IMG/VR virus record: IMGVR_UViG_3300025914_000010
Location: 1 to 64,000 of that record
Source of the DNA: a virus
Length of the DNA: 64,000 nt
Reading direction: 5' to 3' (one strand)
Within the stretch, counting starts at the first letter, position 1. Every line of letters starts with the position of its first letter. The translations under genes and the position numbers were made by a program. A model generated the notes under the pieces. The model did not search any database. It saw nothing but the letters and a program-made list of their open reading frames with translations, and was not told the origin of the DNA. This document shows positions 8,605 through 63,222 of this stretch, one piece after another.

Positions 8605-9089
8605 CCATCGAAGCCGCCCACACCTACATTCGCGACTGCACCACGAGCGGGCGACCCGTTGACCTCGAACACGCGGGGAAGTTGAGCGGATTGCGCGGCC
8701 CGTCGCTCCATCGGTTCGTGGTGGACTGCCAGGCGAGCGGACCGGTTCCGAAGTCCGGCGGGAAGCGGCGCAAGATCGCGAGTGCAGAGGACGGTTGGCT
8801 GGCACTCGCGGCGGTGGTCTTGGGTGGTGATTGTGAGGAAGAAGAGGAGGCAGAGGAAGATGGGCAGCCAGACGCGCTATCGGAATGAGTACGGCACGAC
8901 AACCGGCTCCTACCACGAGCAGGGAACCACTCAGGACGCGCGGGAAGCCGCCGTAGAACGCCGCAGACGGGCATGGCGGGCGTGCCGGGTCAACGACGCT
9001 ATCAACGCGGTCGTGATCTCTCTCTGCTTCCTGGCGCTCGCTGGAACGCTCGGGTGGGCAGCGGTTTCGATCCTGATGGGGTGCGGGCA

Positions 9090-9189: not shown

Positions 9190-9741
9190 ATGACCACCGT
9201 TACTTGCCAGCATTGCGGAAAAGTCTTTGAAAGTCAGCGGCGCACTCGGAAGTTTTGTTCTGTCACCTGTGCGAACCGTAGCATTCACGCAGTTGTAAAG
9301 GAGCGCAATTGCCGCCATTGCGGAGCGGCCTTTCCAGTTATCAGTTCAGCGGATGCCAATCGGCAACACTGCTCCAGAGCGTGCGCGAAAAACTACAACG
9401 CTCTGCGAATCCACAAGTGGAAAGAAGAGCGACCTGGGTACATGAAGCCTTACAACGAGACGCGCAAGGCTAAAGACCCTGAGATTAACAAGAGGAGAGC
9501 GCGAGAGCAGCGAGCAGAGATACTGAGGCTTTTAGGCGGGGCTTGTGTGGTTTGTGGTGCAAGCAATCCTAACTGGCTACACGTTGATTACATCCCTACG
9601 CAAAAGGATTTGCGATTCCGACACCCGCGCCACATTAAATTTGTACGTGAACACTTATCCGAATTCCGAATACTTTGCGCCAACCACCATTACGAACTGA
9701 CTTTAACAGGCGCAATCGAAGGAACAGACATTACGCAATGA
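9190..9741 (+). CDS. Free-standing HNH-like homing endonuclease with N-terminal zinc fingers
   Basis: Repeated CxxC..FCSxxC fingers; LGGACVVCG...LHVDYI...ILCANHH (HNH His appears as Tyr); lower GC. Confidence 0.8.
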   Translation: MTTVTCQHCGKVFESQRRTRKFCSVTCANRSIHAVVKERNCRHCGAAFPVISSADANRQHCSRACAKNYNALRIHKWKEERPGYMKPYNETRKAKDPEINKRRAREQRAEILRLLGGACVVCGASNPNWLHVDYIPTQKDLRFRHPRHIKFVREHLSEFRILCANHHYELTLTGAIEGTDITQ

Positions 9742-10529
9742 GACGACCGAGGTTGTTGGATCTTTACGCAGGAGCCGGTGGTGCCTCTATGGGCTATCAC
9801 CGCGCAGGCTTTGAAGTGGTCGGCGTGGACATGCGCCCGCAGCCGCACTTTCCGTTCCAATTCGTGCAAGCTGACGCGCTGCAGTACCTGCGCGAGTACG
9901 GACGATGTTTCGACGTGATCCACGCGTCGCCGCCGTGTCAGACAGACACACGGCTTGCGAAACTGCACCGCGCCAAAGGGCCAGAGTACGACGCTACGCA
10001 CAAGAGTATGACCGCGCCGACGCGCGACCTGCTGATAGCATCCGGCAAGCCGTACATCATCGAAGGCGTTGAAGGTGCGCCTCTGCTGAATGCCCTCACG
10101 CTCTGCGGCACGATGTTCAACCTTCGCACGGACTGCGGAGCCGAACTGCGGCGGCACAGGCTATTCGAGACGAATTGGTTTGACGATCTGCTGTCCGTGC
10201 CGCTCTGTCAACACGGCTCTGACCGAACGATTGGGGTGACCGGGACCGGTCACCCCATGACGGGAGCGCGGCGGTTCAGCAGAAATCGGACTGTGACCGT
10301 TACGGGTCACAGTCCGATGGACGGGCGCAAGAAACGCGTTATTACTATCACTGGCGCAACGCCGCAACAGAACACTGTGCGCAACCTGATTCGCGAGACG
10401 TTTCCGGTGAGCGCGGCACGAACGGCGATGGGCATTGACTGGATGACATCCATGAAAGAATTATCGCAAGCGATACCGCCTGCATACACGCAGTGGATAG
10501 GCGAACGGCTCATGGAGCAACTGAGATGA
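9738..10529 (+). CDS. DNA cytosine-C5 methyltransferase (phage type)
   Basis: LLDLYAGAGG motif I, ASPPCQ motif IV, IEGV motif VI variant, RHRLFE motif VIII, SQAIPPAY motif X. Confidence 0.9.
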   Translation: MRRPRLLDLYAGAGGASMGYHRAGFEVVGVDMRPQPHFPFQFVQADALQYLREYGRCFDVIHASPPCQTDTRLAKLHRAKGPEYDATHKSMTAPTRDLLIASGKPYIIEGVEGAPLLNALTLCGTMFNLRTDCGAELRRHRLFETNWFDDLLSVPLCQHGSDRTIGVTGTGHPMTGARRFSRNRTVTVTGHSPMDGRKKRVITITGATPQQNTVRNLIRETFPVSAARTAMGIDWMTSMKELSQAIPPAYTQWIGERLMEQLR

Positions 10530-10965: not shown

Positions 10966-11273
10966 GCAAACCCATGATGAAGTGCGGCCACGCGGCCAAC
11001 GCTGTCACTGCTGACGGTAAGCCCTCGTGCGTTATCTGCGCTGGAATTCATCCCGGACACAACATCGTGGATGACGCCCCGCCCGACCTGAGCACCCGAA
11101 CCGCGCGCTGCTTCTACTACGGCATGGTGCCGAGCCGCAACGAGTGCAGTCAATGTCGCGGCAAAGATGCGTGTGGATGTGAGCGACCATCCAACACGGA
11201 TTTGGCTTTCTTCGCTCACAAGCCAGACGCACTGTTCGACGAATTCTACTGCGGGTGCATGTCGTGGGATTGA
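10962..11273 (+). CDS. Cys-rich hypothetical protein
   Basis: MMKCGH...CVIC...CSQC..CGC...DEFYCGC.SWD. Confidence 0.6.
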   Translation: MSKPMMKCGHAANAVTADGKPSCVICAGIHPGHNIVDDAPPDLSTRTARCFYYGMVPSRNECSQCRGKDACGCERPSNTDLAFFAHKPDALFDEFYCGCMSWD

Positions 11274-11732
11274 CCGGATCAACTCGGAGCCTGACGCGGA
11301 AATCCTGGTCGCGCACCGGCGAGAGACGCACGCCGGGTTGCGAGAGCGGCGCCTGGCGATCAGTGCCGTGCCAGCCGAACAGAGCGCAGCGTGAACCGCT
11401 CTACGTCCGGCAGAGAGCCGCTGGTGAGCGTCCTCGTGTTCCTCGCGGGGCTGGCGCTCGGACTGGCGGCGCACGCGATTATGGCGGCGATTGGGAGGTA
11501 TCCGTGACCGGCATGGAGATCAAGCGCCGATCGAACACCGGCATCCGCTACGTGAATTGGGGCGGATGGTACGACACGCCGGACGGTCGCGGTCTGTGCC
11601 TCGCGCGGTGGATGTCCGGACATCAGAAGCACATCCGCAATCCGCGAGGACGCAGGCGATGCGGTAGTCGGTTGTGGATGAAGCAGAACCGTGAGATGTG
11701 CCCGCGCCTGCGCCGGACCCGCAGGCGGTAGA

Positions 11733-12025
11733 GCAGCCACCGACGCCGGGTTAGTTGTCCCGGCCCCGGCTGCACGTTGCGTGAAGCCTACGGAACAAAC
11801 ATAAATCGGCCCACGAGATGGGGCATCCCCGAATAAGTTGCAGGAATAAGGGGAATGCCGTAGGTTTCACGGAGCGTGCATAGGCGGCACGTTCGGCCCC
11901 GCTCCTTACACGAGAAAGCGAGGTGAAGCCATGTGACGGACTTTGATACCGGGACGCGATCGGGGATACGCGAGCGAAGGTGAATATCAGCCGCAGGGGG
12001 TTTCGGGTTCGGTCCCTGCGGACTG
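11733..12025 (+). ncRNA. Highly structured intergenic RNA candidate
   Basis: Stems GCCGGG/CCCGGC; long stem TGCACG..GTGAAGCCTACGG / CCGTAGGTTTCAC..CGTGCA (11771-11880); CCGCAGGG/CCCTGCGG; no convincing ORF. Confidence 0.55.
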
Positions 12026-12114
12026 GCCCCAATAGCATAAGCGCCGAAAGGTGCGGGCAATGCGCCTGGAAACCAAGAGCCGGGAAGATGTCAGTTCGAG
12101 CCTGACAAGGGGCG
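12026..12114 (+). ncRNA. tRNA-like RNA (non-canonical, probably not a decoding tRNA)
   Basis: GCCCC/GGGGC acceptor with AA/AA mismatch; GCAT/ATGC D-stem holding an extra GCGCC-GAAA-GGTGC hairpin; CCTGG/CCGGG stem with 10-nt loop; T-arm GTCAG-TTCGAGC-CTGAC. Confidence 0.7.
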
Positions 12115-12136
12115 TTGTGTGAGAGAGGAGACGACG

Positions 12137-13138
12137 TTGGCTGAAAACACACTGATAAGCTGGGCCACGCATACGGCGAATTTTTGGACTGGTTGCATTA
12201 AGGTGTCCGACCCCGGACTTTGCACAAACTGCTACGCCGAGACGCTTATCAACCGATTCGGCGGCAACTTCGAGCGCGACAGGCCGATGGTCAAGAAGGT
12301 TTGGAGTGACATCCCGCGCTGGCAGAAACAATCCGAGAAAACCGGCGACCGGCCCCGCGTCTTCGTGATGAGCCTGGGTGATTTCTTCGAGGCCCTGCCT
12401 GAAAACCACAAGGACTACTACGACCTCTACGAAGCGCGGAGGCGTGCTATCGACCTGATGGAGCAGACAACCGGGATAGACTACCTGGTCCTGACGAAGC
12501 GCATCTCCAACGTCCGCAAGATGGTCCCGCGCCACTGGCTGGAGATTTGGCCCTCCCACATCCGCCTCGGCATCAGCGTCGGCACGCAGAAGGACGCCGA
12601 CCGGGACATACCCCGACTGTTGAAGATCGACGCGCCCAACTTCTTGAGCATGGAGCCCTTGCTGGAGAGGGTCGATATCTCATGGGCGCTTGAAAGCCAC
12701 GAGTTAGGCGAACTGCCGCAGGACGAAAACGGGCACGCATCTTCGGTGTACTCGAACGCGATTGACTGGGTAATCACGGGCGGCGAGTCGGGACCGCACG
12801 CGAGGCCGATGCACCCCGATTGGGCAAGGTCTCTGCGCGACCAGTGTCAAGCGGCTGGTGTTGCTTTCCACTTCAAGCAATGGGGCCGCAATCTGCCGGA
12901 AAGTCAATGGGACAGCTTCTCCGCAGACATCAACGCGCAACGATGCGCCCGGAATAGTTACGACCTGAGCGAACGAACCATTCGCAGCGTGCGCGCCCAC
13001 GGCGAACGCTTCTATCCGATGAACAAAAGTGAGACAGGCCATCTCCTCGACGGCGAAGTGTGGCAGCAGTTTCCCGAGGCGCTGACGCCGTCGCTCTTTG
13101 CCGCCACCGCCGCGACCGGGAGCGAGGGAGGGGCGTGA
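12137..13138 (+). CDS. Phage Gp37/Gp68 family (DUF5131) radical-SAM-like protein
   Basis: ISWATHTANFWTGCIKVS..CTNCYAE; RVFVMSLGDFF; LTKR; FLSMEPLL; DWVITGGESG; FHFKQWG. Confidence 0.92.
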   Translation: MAENTLISWATHTANFWTGCIKVSDPGLCTNCYAETLINRFGGNFERDRPMVKKVWSDIPRWQKQSEKTGDRPRVFVMSLGDFFEALPENHKDYYDLYEARRRAIDLMEQTTGIDYLVLTKRISNVRKMVPRHWLEIWPSHIRLGISVGTQKDADRDIPRLLKIDAPNFLSMEPLLERVDISWALESHELGELPQDENGHASSVYSNAIDWVITGGESGPHARPMHPDWARSLRDQCQAAGVAFHFKQWGRNLPESQWDSFSADINAQRCARNSYDLSERTIRSVRAHGERFYPMNKSETGHLLDGEVWQQFPEALTPSLFAATAATGSEGGA

Positions 13139-13962
13139 GCCGCCCTGTCCTACGATACCACGGCGGCAAATGGAAACTCGCTCCGTGGATCATATCGCAC
13201 TTCGGCCCGCACAAGGTCTACACCGAGACGTTCGGCGGCGGTGCGTCCGTCCTGATGCGAAAGGCGCGTTCCTACGCAGAAGTTTACAACGACCTTGACG
13301 GCGAAATTTGCAATCTCTTCTGCGTTCTTCGCCACCGATCGCACGAGCTGACCCGCGCACTCGAATTGACGCCGTTCGCGCGAGATGAATACAAGCGCAG
13401 CTTTGAGATAAGCAAAGACGAACTTGAGCAGGCGCGGCGCACGGTCATTCGCTCCTACATGGGATTCGGCTCGAACTCGTTGAACCGCGACCTCAAGAGC
13501 GGTTTCCGATCGTGCAGCAACCGAAGCGGAACGACGCCCGCACACGATTGGGCGAACTTCCCGAAAGCGATTGCTGAAATAGCCGACCGGCTGAGTGGCG
13601 TCGTGATTGAGAACCAAGACGCGAAGGAAGTCATGGCGGCGCACGACAGCACAGAAACGCTCCACTACGTGGATCCGCCCTACGTTCATTCGACGCGTTC
13701 AGGAGCGATGCACGGCAACCACGGATACGCCCACGAGATGACCGACGCCGAACACGAGGCATTGGCGGCGTTCCTGTGTGGATTGGAAGGCATGGTCGTC
13801 CTAAGCGGCTATCACAGCTCGCTCTATGACCGCCTGTATCGTGACTGGAAACGCACCGACAAATCCGCACTTGGCGACGGAGCGGTAAAGCGCACTGAGG
13901 TTCTATGGTTCAACGACAGGGCAGCGACGGCGATAGCCCAGGGCAACCTATTCGACCCATAG
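13135..13962 (+). CDS. DNA adenine methyltransferase (D12/Dam family)
   Basis: LRYHGGKW, ETFGGGASV, YNDLD, YVDPPY. Confidence 0.92.
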   Translation: MSRPVLRYHGGKWKLAPWIISHFGPHKVYTETFGGGASVLMRKARSYAEVYNDLDGEICNLFCVLRHRSHELTRALELTPFARDEYKRSFEISKDELEQARRTVIRSYMGFGSNSLNRDLKSGFRSCSNRSGTTPAHDWANFPKAIAEIADRLSGVVIENQDAKEVMAAHDSTETLHYVDPPYVHSTRSGAMHGNHGYAHEMTDAEHEALAAFLCGLEGMVVLSGYHSSLYDRLYRDWKRTDKSALGDGAVKRTEVLWFNDRAATAIAQGNLFDP

Positions 13963-14330: not shown

Positions 14331-14360
14331 TTGACTTTTCTTGGTATTACCGGGTATTAT
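14331..14360 (+). promoter_or_regulatory. Promoter for recombination/replication genes
   Basis: TTGACT-18nt-TATTAT. Confidence 0.5.
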
Positions 14361-25627: not shown

Positions 25628-25823
25628 TTTGATCTCTGCGGGCCGGTCGCTTAATCCGGCTCAGACTGCCCGATTTGTCCGCGCCCGGTGGTTGACTAAA
25701 CTCCGGTTCGTCGGGTGCCTGTAAGTATAGGTAGTCACTCCTATACCCTGTCTTCCTGGAGTGAGCGTGTCGATTAAAGGGAGCCAGCCTTCGTTGCCCT
25801 TCCACGCCGCCGCAGAGATCAAA
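25628..25823 (-). ncRNA. Large tRNA-like structured RNA domain
   Basis: Perfect 14-bp closing stem TTTGATCTCTGCGG/CCGCAGAGATCAAA; D-like arm GCGTG..CACGC; T-like arm GCCGG-ATTAAGCGA-CCGGC; internal TCACTCC/GGAGTGA. Confidence 0.65.
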
Positions 25824-25991
25824 CCGGTTTTCACTGCCGAACCATCCCAAGGGCAGGTAAAGGGTTCCTGTTGGCCGCGACTTTCGTCTCGCACCCTCCA
25901 CGTCAGGCATCTTTCAGCGACAGTGAAATCGGTAGAGGCATATAGGGAGCCTAACGCTTCACACGGCATGAAGCCGAGTTTCATGCCTCTA

Positions 25992-26065
25992 TAATGGCGG
26001 CGCGATTCGAACGCGCACTGTGCAGGGTTTAAGCCTGCTGTCTCCTGCCGTTGGACTACGCCATC
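25992..26065 (-). tRNA. tRNA-Leu(UAA), short variable arm, no encoded CCA
   Basis: GATGGCG/CGCCATT acceptor with A73; GTC..GAC D-stem; GCAGG-CTTAAAC-CCTGC; T-arm GCGCG-TTCGAAT-CGCGC. Confidence 0.88.
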
Positions 26066-39871: not shown

Positions 39872-42800
39872 ACCGGCTGCAGCCCAAAATCACCGCCGTG
39901 GTTGAACAGCGAAGCGGTCCCGAGGCTCGTCTGCTGCGCGATAACGCGCTGCGTCGTCGTCTTCACGCCATCAACGTAGTTGTTAATCTCGAAGATCGGC
40001 GCATTCGTCGGCGGCACGGCAAACCCCACGTTCTGCATCGTCGGCTTGATCCCGTAAGCGGTGTAGTTGTACGCGCCAATGTCAAATGCTGAAGGAGCGT
40101 TGTAGAGACTGGGATTGAGGTCCTGCGGCGTCTGCGTCGGCTTGTTGCTCTGATGGAAAAGACCGCCGATCAGGTCCGCCACGCCGCCAACGGCCGCGCC
40201 GATCAATCCACCGATCGGCCCTCCGAAGCTCGCGCCGATGCTCGCGCCGGTAATCACGCCGCCAAGGAGGTTCCCCGCATTCACGCCCTGCTGCGCCGCC
40301 GTCGCGCCGATGCTGTAGGCCGCGAGCGCTGCACCGCCCGCTTTCTGCAAATCGGTCTGCCCAGCCTTGCGCCCCTTCGAACTCGTGCCCGTGCTGTTGC
40401 CGCCGCCCGTGCCTGCTGCCTGCGCGAAGCCGGCGACCACGCCCGCTGCCACGCTCTGTGCGACTGGCGAATTCGAAATGTTTCCGGTCGGCACGCCGAC
40501 GCCGGTTCCTGTACCTGAGAGCGTTGCGTTTAGCGCGTCGAGGGCGTCGGTGTTCCCCTGGAGGCTCAATATCTGGTTCGTCGTCGTCTGGATAAGGGGA
40601 TCGGTGAACCGTTTGATCTGCGCCTCAAGCGCGGCATCGACGATCTTCCCGCCAATGTCCTGTGCTACCGTCCCGATGTCCCCGCGCCCGTGGAAAAAAT
40701 TCAGGAACGCGCTGTTCACCGTCTCCTTCACGCTCCCGAAGACGTTCTGGTACTTCTGCAGCGCGCTCTCGATCTTGAAGTCACTCAGGTTCTGCTGCGC
40801 CTCCTGCAAGTTCTTCGAAGCCTTGCGGATCTCGCTATTGCCTGTCTCGCTGTACACCCCCTCGTTGATCTTCTTAACGGCGTCGAGGTGCTCCTGCGCT
40901 GTATGGATAAGTTCCTGGTACTTCGCGATCGTATCTTTCGTCGCGGCTCCTTCATCAGCGGCGAACTTTAACCGGTGCAGATGGTTGATCTCCTCGGCCT
41001 TAAGTTGATACGCGTCGGCTTCCGTCTGCACGCGCTTCTGATAGGCTTCCGCCGCAACCTTGTCCTTGAAGTCGATGAGCGCCGCGTTCGCGTCTGCGAG
41101 TTTATTGCGCATCTCCTTGAGTTGATCGACGTTCTCCTGCGTCGGCGATGTGATTTTCGCGAGAGCATCTACGGCCGCCTGAATGATCTCAACCGCCCGC
41201 TGCAGGCGCGAACTCTCGGCTGCGTTCTGGTTCGTGAAGATGTCGTTGCCGCGCGCGCCCCGCTGGAGCGCGTTCAGCCGGTCCTGTACCGCTTCGCCGA
41301 GGCTCTGCCCGTACTGGTTCTGAAGCGCCGCCGGACTGATACCGGTCCCGAAGAAGCCCTGCATGAAAGTCGTCGCCAGTTCCTTCAACGCATCCTTCTG
41401 CGTCGCCCCCGTGCCAGTCAGCCCCGCATTGATCTCCCGCAATTCCCCCGGCCCTGCCGCTGCCCGTTCCGCGAGGTCGGCTGCCTTTGCCGCTGCAATC
41501 GCCTGCGGGCTGAGGACGCCGTGCTGCTTAACGGCGATGTCGTAATCCCGACGCGTCGTCTCGGCGCGCGCCTTCATCATCGCTTCGGAGGCGTCGTGTG
41601 CGTTCTGCCACGCTTCGTTCTCGGCTTTCAGCGCGTCTTCGCGCGCCTTGTCCGCCTTGTCCGCCAACTCAACCTGCGCACCTTCGCGATTCGCGTTCAG
41701 CATCATCCGTGTCGCGTTGTCGTTCTCGGCCTTCGCGATCTGCTTGCGCAGGTTGTCGGTTTTCACCGCCGCCGCGACAATCTCGGGCGACTGGTAGTTC
41801 GGAGCCGCCTTCTCGCTTTCCTGGCCCACAAGGATGTCGAACTGTGCTTTCGCGGTGTTGTACTTGTCCTTCAGCGCGTCCATGTACTGCCGCGCCGCTT
41901 CGTTGGCCGCTCTCTCGGCGTCCTTGTCAGGAGGCGGCGTGTAGCCTCCCTTGACGTGCAGATTGCCCGTGTTTGGGTTTGCGGGTTGAAGTCCGACGGG
42001 AGGCAAACCGAAATGCGCGTTCTGGAGTTGTTGCTGCATAACGCGGGCGTCGCGCTGCATCGCCATCTGAACTTCGTGCAGCGAGATCCCCGCTTCCCTG
42101 GCGTACCGATACTTCACCATCTCGGCTTCGGCGGGCGTCATGCCGTCGGTGACGAGGTTCCAGTTCCATCCCTGGCCGATCGGCCTATTCATATCTTGTG
42201 GCGCTTGAAACGGACCCGAAGCCTGCGATCTGCGAATATTTCCCAGTGACTGTTGAACTGCACCCTGCGTGGTAGTTACGGCCTGCCTGACCGGAGCACC
42301 AGGTGCTAGAGCGCCGCGAGTGAACGCATCTCGTCCCTGCTGAAAGTCACGAACGATGCGCATCGCTTCTAGGATGTGCTGCAGGTCGTCCCCGATGCCA
42401 TGCAGCCAACCACGCAGAGGACTTATATCGATCAGGTTGGATAGATACGAGAAGGCCCCACCCCACACTCGTTTCCACTCCTGTTCAGTGGTCGTCATCG
42501 TCTGACGCAGATTGTCCGTCTCAGATGTCAACCCGTGCGTCGCCTTGGTAGCAGCATCCAATTTCTCCTGGATAACGCGCAGGAACTCGGGGTTAACCGT
42601 GCCGAACAACCGCCAAGCCTGCTGCGTGCCGCTGATCGCCTGCGAGAACTTCTGAGCAGTTGCGACTGGCATTCGGCTCGCGACTTCGTTGAAGTTCTTC
42701 ATCGTCTGGATCAAATCCAGACCGCCGGACGGAGTAAGCCCTGCCTGAAGTGTCGCGCCCTTGTTGCTGATAAGCCCGGTCGCGGGATTGAAATGTTGGA

Positions 42801-63086: not shown

Positions 63087-63222
63087 GTTTGCGCCCCTCC
63101 CAGGCGCTTTATCCTCCAAACGACAAAAAGCGCATAGCAAGCGTTTGGAGGAACGCTTTTCGCCCCGTCGGGCTAGCTATGCGCAGGCTGGTGAACAGCC
63201 ATTTTCAGTTTTTAGCGAACGC

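Follow-up and report, generated by a model that had tools for sequence, protein, structure and literature searches.

The gap that precedes the DUF5131 gene in the early operon of this phage is a composite of three joined pieces, not a single RNA gene. It is an intercistronic spacer whose core is made up of a start-stop, a GC hairpin and a tRNA-like fold, and this order recurs in four phage lineages. By analogy with the t-elements of plant mitochondria, we put the probability at around 0.5 that the core serves as a signal read by RNase P and by a nuclease of the 3' tRNA end, with the hairpin upstream of the fold capping the newly made 3' end.

The window, that is, the whole stretch of DNA analysed, covers the initial 64 kb of an IMG/VR virus record that is 78,660 bp long. 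Among public runs, the full-length sequence was present in one rhizosphere metagenome only, none of the runs recorded as RNA contained it, and the phage is termed here a soil phage. The genes and signals that frame the gap are as follows.

9675–10529, plus strand: DNA methyltransferase (PHROG 363)
Between the methyltransferase and the gap, plus strand: several small Cys-rich or coiled-coil ORFs
Stop codon at 11271–11273, plus strand: small Cys-rich gene, directly 5' of the stub of the intercistronic element at 11274
12121–12128, plus strand: Shine–Dalgarno (SD) sequence of the DUF5131 gene, GAGAGGAG
12137 (TTG) to 13138, plus strand: DUF5131 gene (Pfam PF07505, 3.3e-64), the first cistron after the spacer
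13060–13962, plus strand: Dam-type methylase
14331–14360: promoter-like site, followed by a single-strand annealing protein gene

Analysis of positions 11733–12136 revealed no third-position GC periodicity, the GC content by codon position being 0.63/0.55/0.60, 0.65/0.60/0.63 and 0.53/0.63/0.65, compared with 0.77/0.58/0.46 in the DUF5131 gene. The antisense ORFs of the gap have no PHROG match, and neither promoter-like nor terminator-like sites were found in it. The gap as a whole folds better than its shuffles (z −3.2). At gathering thresholds, Rfam returned only a tRNA-Leu and an int-alpA RNA from the 64-kb window, the latter at 63113–63183 on the minus strand with a passing score of 50.1 bits, and a relaxed Rfam scan over 39 kb gave no additional tRNA-like match. 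Matches in phage GenBank records were confined to the coding part of the DUF5131 gene, and an identical DUF5131 was found on a JGI contig of 21.8 kb and a Logan contig of 9.8 kb. An earlier note on this DNA had described a non-coding gap of about 385 nt, an interrupted stem of about 20 bp at 11771–11880 and a cloverleaf 22 nt ahead of the DUF5131 gene. Each element was found where the note had placed it: the lack of GC periodicity and of PHROG matches bears out the absence of coding, the stem has 22 bp (8 + 14) with one interruption, and the fold ends at 12114, the TTG start lying at 12137.

The composite nature of the gap emerged from a comparison of 11255–13138 with contigs (Logan) from four other public runs; the segment 12011–12136 is uncovered by the contigs of relatives. 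The features of the first piece and its left flank are these.

11274–11301, plus strand: 5' stub of the conserved intercistronic element, present in the Logan contigs of runs X3 and X4
11302–11891, plus strand: presence/absence cassette of 590 bp, with two small ORFs and a structured 3' domain
11391–11507, plus strand: cassette ORF for a 38-aa hydrophobic peptide
11513–11731, plus strand: cassette ORF for a 72-aa basic orphan protein
11733–11888, plus strand: closed RNA domain with a Y-shaped tip, 3'-most feature of the cassette, folding at −77.3 kcal/mol
11745–11764, plus strand: hairpin within this domain
11771–11793 with 11858–11880, plus strand: interrupted stem of 22 bp (8 + 14)

Contigs from X3, a rhizosphere run, and from X4 read through 11255/11274–11301, then through 20–24 foreign letters and then from 11890/11892 onward. 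The X3 contig joins 11301 to 11892 by way of 24 letters, skipping 590 nt, and the X4 contig joins it to 11890 by way of 20, skipping 588 nt; the cassette-less contigs of these two samples retain 11892–11975. The cassette-bearing form is also present in X2 and X3. In this phage the cassette is single-copy; it is absent from the related phage G001 (see below) and from every locus compared, and its 72-aa protein has no relatives beyond its own cluster. Further downstream, an X3 contig follows 11951–12010 and then diverges, and in an X4 contig the DUF5131 gene is present from 12138 behind other upstream sequence, resembling that of locus L082. Mosaic joints are thereby located at 11301/11892, ~12010 and 12137.

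The RNA domain of the cassette begins 2 nt past the stop codon of the 72-aa ORF and ends 3 nt short of the right edge of the cassette. Its folding energy of −77.3 kcal/mol compares with −55.2 ± 4.3 for shuffled sequences (z −5.1), and none of 200 shuffles folded as well. Because the contigs skip 11302–11891 and the domain lies inside the edges of the cassette, the long stem is assigned to the cassette and not to what follows. We conclude that the stem at 11771–11880 lies outside the conserved unit and forms the closing structure of the inserted cassette of 590 bp. With its 22 bp, the predicted helix is long enough for an RNase III site or for a 3' stabiliser of the cassette genes. At the tip of the domain there are two small hairpins, one of which has the loop GAAUAAG-N6-GAAUAAG. 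This loop, in the second hairpin at 11826–11846 (GAAUAAG-UUGCAG-GAAUAAG), resembles the conserved loop of RAGATH-9 RNAs. The Rfam match to RAGATH-9 (RF03146) at 11778–11862 is weak and non-significant (18.7 bits, E 2.8), and membership was rejected since the score is to be set against a gathering threshold of 75.2 bits and the central section of ~97 nt is absent.

The second piece, at the right edge of the cassette, is a short module that is conserved in all four lineages.

11892–11941, plus strand: conserved start-stop module, recognised by a four-lineage nhmmer profile
11897–11923, plus strand: module hairpin, CC-C-CGCU with AGCG-A-GG and one C.A mismatch, the pairing being read from the sequence
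11918–11925, plus strand: module SD sequence, GCGAGGUG, which fits the 16S tail
11931–11933, plus strand: module AUG
11934–11936, plus strand: module stop codon UGA

The stretch that can be aligned between L082 and window positions 11892–11941 reads TCGGCCC...GAAAGCGAGGTG(N1-2)GCCATGTGA. The four-lineage profile recognises the module in the window with an E-value of 2.5e-13, in L082 with 7e-13, in G001 with 8e-12 and in L185 with 5e-11, and it found nothing credible among ~200 other loci. In the window, L082 and G001, the module has the make-up of a start-stop, with an SD sequence (GCGAGGUG) at a working distance of 4–5 nt from an AUG that is followed directly by UGA; in L185, the codons are AUG-UAA instead and the three bases preceding the AUG also differ. 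The spacing between the SD sequence and the AUG varies by a one-base indel, so that no conserved frame runs into the module. Hidden coding in the form of UGA read-through, or of a GUG start within AUGUGA, was rejected, as it leads into unrelated short frames in each lineage. Start-stops in Escherichia coli bind ribosomes (bioRxiv 10.1101/520783). The predicted start-stop, judged by its codons, can only hold a ribosome and would yield no product.

The SD sequence can pair with CC(C/U)CGC(U) lying 15–20 nt upstream in the window, L082 and L185, and this pairing is absent in G001. A long-range pairing of AGAUGUGCGACC with the SD–AUG region, proposed by RNAalifold, was not adopted because both sides are invariant and L185 is without the 5' motif. 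In the minimum-energy fold of 11881–12139, CUCCUUACACG in the module loop (11902–11912) pairs with GUGUGAGAGAG just before the DUF5131 start (12114–12128); this pairing would enclose the whole unit and mask the DUF5131 ribosome site, and no counterpart was seen in the relatives. The word GAAAGCGAGG is also the ribosome site of a downstream gene in L082 (590–612) and in L163, the locus that corresponds to G001 (~8985–9010, minus strand), where the context is GAAAGCGAGGCCGAC followed by GTG or ATG. Its use at other genes of both relatives indicates that the module word is the usual strong SD context of this phage group.

Between the module and the DUF5131 gene lie a variable spacer and the tRNA-like fold.

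11945–12021, plus strand: variable spacer, a branched stem followed by a GC hairpin
11945–11988, plus strand: branched stem closed by GAUA/UAUC, from folding
11991–12021, plus strand: GC hairpin, CCGCAGGG/CCCUGCGG, ending 4 nt 5' of the tRNA-like fold
12026–12114, plus strand: tRNA-like structure (Rfam tRNA 20.1 bits; minimum-energy cloverleaf)

The acceptor stem of the fold has 5 bp and two A.A oppositions. It is followed by U8-A9 and by a D stem, GCAU/AUGC, with the pair G10-C25; the D loop of 21 nt contains a GCGCC-GAAA-GGUGC hairpin and GGG. The anticodon stem (CCUGG/CCGGG) carries the 10-nt loop AAACCAAGAG, the variable loop has 5 nt, and the T arm, GUCAG-UUCGAGC-CUGAC, includes G53-C61. 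The fold has G as its discriminator and lacks an encoded CCA. With its four stems and a UUCRANY-type T loop, the fold has the architecture of a tRNA, and the cloverleaf is the minimum-energy fold of 12020–12120. It is also the best Rfam match of the region, at 20.1 bits and an E-value of 0.46 against 4227 families in 1.8 kb, which by arithmetic corresponds to ~1e-4 for the tRNA model alone. The terminal cloverleaf of the earlier note is thus present according to both Rfam and folding, though below the gathering score of 29 bits. ARAGORN did not call it, even at lowered thresholds. Dinucleotide shuffles of the 89-nt fold gave a simple cloverleaf in only 7 of 2000 cases, while the stability of the fold alone is not above that of shuffles (z −0.85).

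A functional decoding tRNA (RF00005) was rejected on account of the score (20.1 < 29 bits) and of the 10-nt loop in place of a 7-nt loop with U33. A tmRNA was likewise rejected: the ARAGORN tmRNA search was negative at a lowered threshold too, there was no Rfam tmRNA match, and the sole frame is AUG-UGA. The one tRNA called in this phage, its own tRNA-Leu(UAA) at 25992–26065 on the minus strand, has 74 nt and a 5-nt variable loop, not the usual long arm of bacterial tRNA-Leu; it too has no encoded CCA (UAGAGG follows).

Relatives were sought among 160 DUF5131 loci from IMG/VR and metagenomes, none of which gave a sequence match to the spacer. ARAGORN reported a 'tRNA-???' upstream of DUF5131 in only two of them, L082 and L083, which are near-identical to each other and are the closest DUF5131 loci (54% protein identity). 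A scan with the module pattern gave one true match, L163, which is part of G001, a complete phage of 72.5 kb that is collinear with this phage at 65–90% nucleotide identity over many genes. L185, from the 64-kb G002, was found by searching with the nearest DUF5131 protein, P0002. The further lineages with the element are therefore L082/L083, L163 (G001) and L185 (G002). Other pattern matches, in L162, L164, L165–L167, L183 and L184, were set aside as chance, with coding sequence, the wrong GC content or other motifs missing, as were those in GTDB genomes and other IMG/VR contigs. Exact-pattern scans of IMG/VR with the 3' half of the fold, the D arm and the 11910–11930 21-mer gave no match, the loci around relatives of the nearby annealing-protein gene are without the module, Rfam gave no tRNA match on L082 and G001 at E-values up to 10, and ARAGORN found no tRNA on G001.

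A link to DUF5131 was dropped because only the two closest loci drew the tRNA-like call; we take the association to be incidental because other genes intervene in L082 and L185 and because G001 is without DUF5131. The upstream neighbours of the element differ as well, being various Cys-rich small proteins and, in L185, a phage metallopeptidase, and downstream lie DUF5131, a 66-aa coiled coil, a 45-aa ORF or a His-rich protein. From these sequences we conclude that it is the element itself that is kept across lineages and not the flanking genes, which are non-homologous between lineages.

Comparison with G001 brought out other shared non-coding stretches. The 67 nt at 25762–25828, beside the tRNA-Leu, are 91% identical to G001 11441–11505. 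Beyond the end of the window, an element of ~55 nt occurs in this phage in four copies (70237–70302, 74813–74867, 77038–77063 and 78232–78285), all of which match a single G001 site, 40625–40679, at 79–98% identity, and an element of ~130 nt occurs in two (74028–74155 and 76217–76343), matching G001 41053–41181. Both are repeated conserved non-coding units of the right arm.

The four lineages share a common order: the stop codon of an unrelated small gene, a 5' tract, the SD–AUG–stop module, a GC hairpin, the cloverleaf and the next gene. A spacer of variable make-up follows the module in every lineage. The GC hairpin equivalent lies 0–12 nt upstream of the fold in each relative, and the ribosome site or start codon of the next gene lies within ~20 nt of the fold in every lineage. 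None of the elements in the relatives has a counterpart of the long stem at 11771–11880. The folds themselves are the following.

Window, 12026–12114, plus strand: Rfam tRNA 20.1 bits; anticodon-loop equivalent of 10 nt; T loop UUCGAGC
L082, 338–410/411: ARAGORN 'tRNA-???'; anticodon-loop equivalent of 6 nt; T loop UUCGAGU
L185, 4331–4411/4412: Rfam tRNA clan 22.4 bits, E 0.045; anticodon-loop equivalent of 9 nt; T loop UUCAAUU
G001, L163:8819–8895, minus strand: minimum-energy cloverleaf only; anticodon-loop equivalent of 5 nt; no T loop, 22 nt enclosed

The anticodon-loop equivalents are thus 10, 6, 9 and 5 nt long and never 7 nt. A 7-nt UUCRANY-type T loop is present in three of the four lineages, the G001 fold being without both the T loop and the D-loop GG. 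The acceptor plus T stack amounts to 12 positions in three lineages, and U-A precedes a D stem opened by G-C in all four. No base is common to the four folds beyond general tRNA features, and the acceptor sequences and discriminators (G, A, A) differ. Every tRNA-like call is below the curated threshold of its own family. The false-call rate of ARAGORN was one in 0.94 Mb of shuffled L082 sequence, and the window, L082 and G001 folds are simple cloverleaves by minimum energy, an outcome seen in 7–8 of 2000 shuffles (0.35–0.4%); the minimum-energy structure of the L185 fold, taken alone, is not a simple cloverleaf.

A covariance model built from the window fold only re-finds the other three at the same coordinates; in the 48 kb searched they take ranks 2, 4 and 7, with 10.2, 9.1 and 7.2 bits. 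These scores are not significant alone, yet the matches carry weight because their places had been fixed beforehand. An alignment of the four folds with MAFFT was meaningless because they share no sequence, and a position template was therefore used. On this 19-pair cloverleaf template, 74 of the 76 pair cells are paired, against 28–36 in slid controls, a count that is inflated because the template derives from the sequences themselves. All 19 pairs form in the window fold, and 18 of the 19 pair columns of the common template differ on both sides between lineages. The statistics are thin, as only four lineages are known and L082 and L083 are near duplicates.

The L082 fold ends 3 nt before an ATG that lacks an SD sequence. 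In L185 (4429–4600), the fold is followed by a strong SD sequence, AAGGAGGG, and by a protein-like frame, SKELFSIGLNLRIQPEVIDLL..., with GC contents by codon position of 0.74/0.26/0.64 and no ATG, GTG or TTG until 4575; judged from this frame, translation of the gene may begin at a codon outside the canonical set, for instance ACG 4443.

Overall, the fold keeps those features that the enzymes of tRNA end processing would be expected to recognise, namely an acceptor-plus-T stack of 12 positions together with a T loop and the GG of the D loop, and has no usable anticodon loop. As in t-elements, a non-canonical fold with a T arm lies inside a polycistronic stretch, 22 nt before the DUF5131 gene, and this placement is repeated in L082, L185 and G001. 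We favour processing because the retained half of the tRNA that enzymes grip, the free anticodon loop, the hairpin upstream and the ribosome site downstream match the t-elements of plant mitochondria. In the mechanism proposed, host RNase P would cut at 12025/12026, immediately 5' of the fold, as suggested by the shape and position of the latter, and the hairpin at 11991–12021, 4 nt upstream of the cut, would become the protective 3' end of the upstream RNA. A 3' tRNA-end nuclease of the RNase Z or RNase E type would cut after the discriminator, at ~12114, and the DUF5131 message would then begin a few bases before its own ribosome site; without the 3' cut, the fold would remain attached and cap the 5' end of that message. 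The start-stop would keep a ribosome on an otherwise untranslated stretch, where it could act as a 5'/3' stabiliser or give protection from Rho. RNase P prefers U at the base before its cut site; the base before the proposed site is G in the window and A in L082, which counts against the proposed cut.

Other explanations have to be set against this. The fold could itself be the product, an excised stable RNA of ~90 nt acting in trans, for instance by decoying a host factor or defence that binds tRNAs by their acceptor/T-arm half; its targets could include tRNA-targeting nucleases, the CCA-adding enzyme, modification enzymes and EF-Tu. In keeping with this, the elbow and T-arm nucleotides are retained in three of the four lineages, the fold lies in the early host-takeover part of the genome beside DNA methylases, and t-elements can accumulate as stable RNAs (PMC1920247). 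We nevertheless think a decoy unlikely, given that the bases shared by the four folds are only those general to tRNAs, the acceptors and discriminators (G, A, A) differ, anticodon-loop equivalents of 5–10 nt argue against the mimicry of one particular tRNA, and the G001 version has no T loop. It is also quite unlikely that the conserved part is chiefly an element of transcription or recombination with the cloverleaf as a secondary feature, whether a Rho-dependent terminator or antiterminator or a PeSL-like boundary for gene swapping. Such an element would leave unexplained why a cloverleaf is rebuilt with different sequence at the same place in each lineage, the gap has no terminator-like site, and the boxA-like resemblance of CGCUCCUUACA, read by eye, holds in the window only. 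Its attraction lies in the conservation of the module while the genes on both sides differ, in the mosaic joints at 11301/11892, ~12010 and 12137, and, for Rho, in the 5' tracts of L082 and G001, which are C-rich and G-poor and read CCACCGGAACCCACCCAC and similar.

The window fold could also be a decaying tRNA pseudogene, tRNA genes being common in phages and open to decay, or a chance fold in a GC-rich spacer without function. All calls being under curated thresholds and the z-score of −0.85 for the window fold alone would suit this explanation. Neutral decay would, however, break the stems, and pairing is intact in 74 of 76 stem cells although the four lineages have hardly any sequence in common; moreover, the fold has the same placement each time with respect to module, hairpin and next gene, and false-positive rates are ~1 per Mb (ARAGORN) and 0.4% (cloverleaf). 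We consider this explanation improbable. Least credible is that 11733–12114 is one structured non-coding RNA of ~385 nt, as the earlier note had offered for an alternative. The full gap does fold well (z −3.2) without an ORF signal, but contigs of two other samples lack 11733–11891 and yet keep 11892–11975, most of the stability resides in 11733–11888 alone (z −5.1), the elements of the relatives have no long-stem counterpart and no Rfam family matches. The cassette-less contigs and the separate module thus count against this part of the earlier proposal, whereas its other part, a processing signal for RNase P and RNase Z, gives the best fit to the comparative data, in which four lineages keep a non-decoding fold with a hairpin upstream and a gene downstream.

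If the fold is cut as tRNA-style processing would have it, punctuation of messages by tRNA-like structures, so far a matter of mitochondria and a few eukaryotic lncRNAs, would extend to bacteriophages. Some of the structured gaps that look 'empty' in phage operons would then be accounted for, and annotation would gain a recognisable signal that tRNA finders miss. As a practical caution, such folds should not be annotated as tRNA genes or pseudogenes. A more tentative step would be to regard the series of SD–AUG–stop, GC hairpin and non-decoding tRNA mimic as a distinct conserved class of cis-acting phage RNA, in which a ribosome dock and a cut site cooperate and which moves between phages independently of its neighbours. 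Such a unit would set the ends, stability and translation of the neighbouring early messages, and its effect in L082 would be an mRNA with almost no leader. The coupling to a start-stop also offers a compact system in which to test the effect of a ribosome parked on a two-codon frame on the neighbouring RNA. No paper on tRNA-like punctuation in phages was found in the literature searched, and the coupling of a tRNA mimic to a conserved start-stop and hairpin is, as far as we have found, undescribed.

Among known RNAs, the canonical tRNA (RF00005, clan CL00001) shares with the window fold the cloverleaf, U8-A9, G10-C25, the D-loop GG, the 5-nt variable loop, the T loop UUCGAGC and G53-C61; the window fold differs in its 10-nt anticodon loop, the 14-nt hairpin inserted in the D loop and the two A.A oppositions of the acceptor. 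In phage T7, RNase III sites lie between early genes. These sites resemble only the stem at 11771–11880, which likewise lies between early-operon cistrons and is long and interrupted, with a length of about two helical turns; it has no sequence relation to them, is a predicted stem and belongs to an optional cassette. In MALAT1/mascRNA, an RNase P cut at a tRNA-like fold makes the 3' end of the upstream RNA, which is then protected by structure. As in our proposal, the tRNA-like fold lies downstream of a stabilising structure; MALAT1 differs in being a eukaryotic nuclear lncRNA with a triple helix, not a hairpin, and in having no downstream cistron. SD-like sites without a start codon, such as the STAB-SD of cry3A and the polypurine stabiliser of SP82, act on adjacent RNA by protecting or modulating it. 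Bacterial start-stops (Meydan et al., bioRxiv 10.1101/520783) have, like the module, a strong SD sequence and an AUG followed directly by a stop codon, but those of E. coli lie inside genes, whereas the phage start-stop occupies a spacer between cistrons, has been kept across phage lineages and goes together with a tRNA mimic.

The closest parallel is with plant mitochondria, in which non-canonical tRNA-like t-elements guide RNase P and RNase Z to the sites where mRNA 5' and 3' ends are made (PMC1920247, Forner et al. 2007). These t-elements and the punctuation of mitochondrial messages by tRNAs have in common with the phage element a non-canonical cloverleaf, with a good T arm and acceptor stem, set beside protein genes on a polycistronic RNA. 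Moreover, one plant mitochondrial mRNA has its 5' end at +2 of the ATG (PMC1920247), which resembles the situation in L082, with its ATG without an SD sequence 3 nt beyond the end of the fold. The t-elements differ in being organellar and in having mapped cleavages, whereas those of the phage fold are predicted, and, unlike them, the phage fold is coupled to a conserved SD–AUG–stop module and to an upstream GC hairpin.
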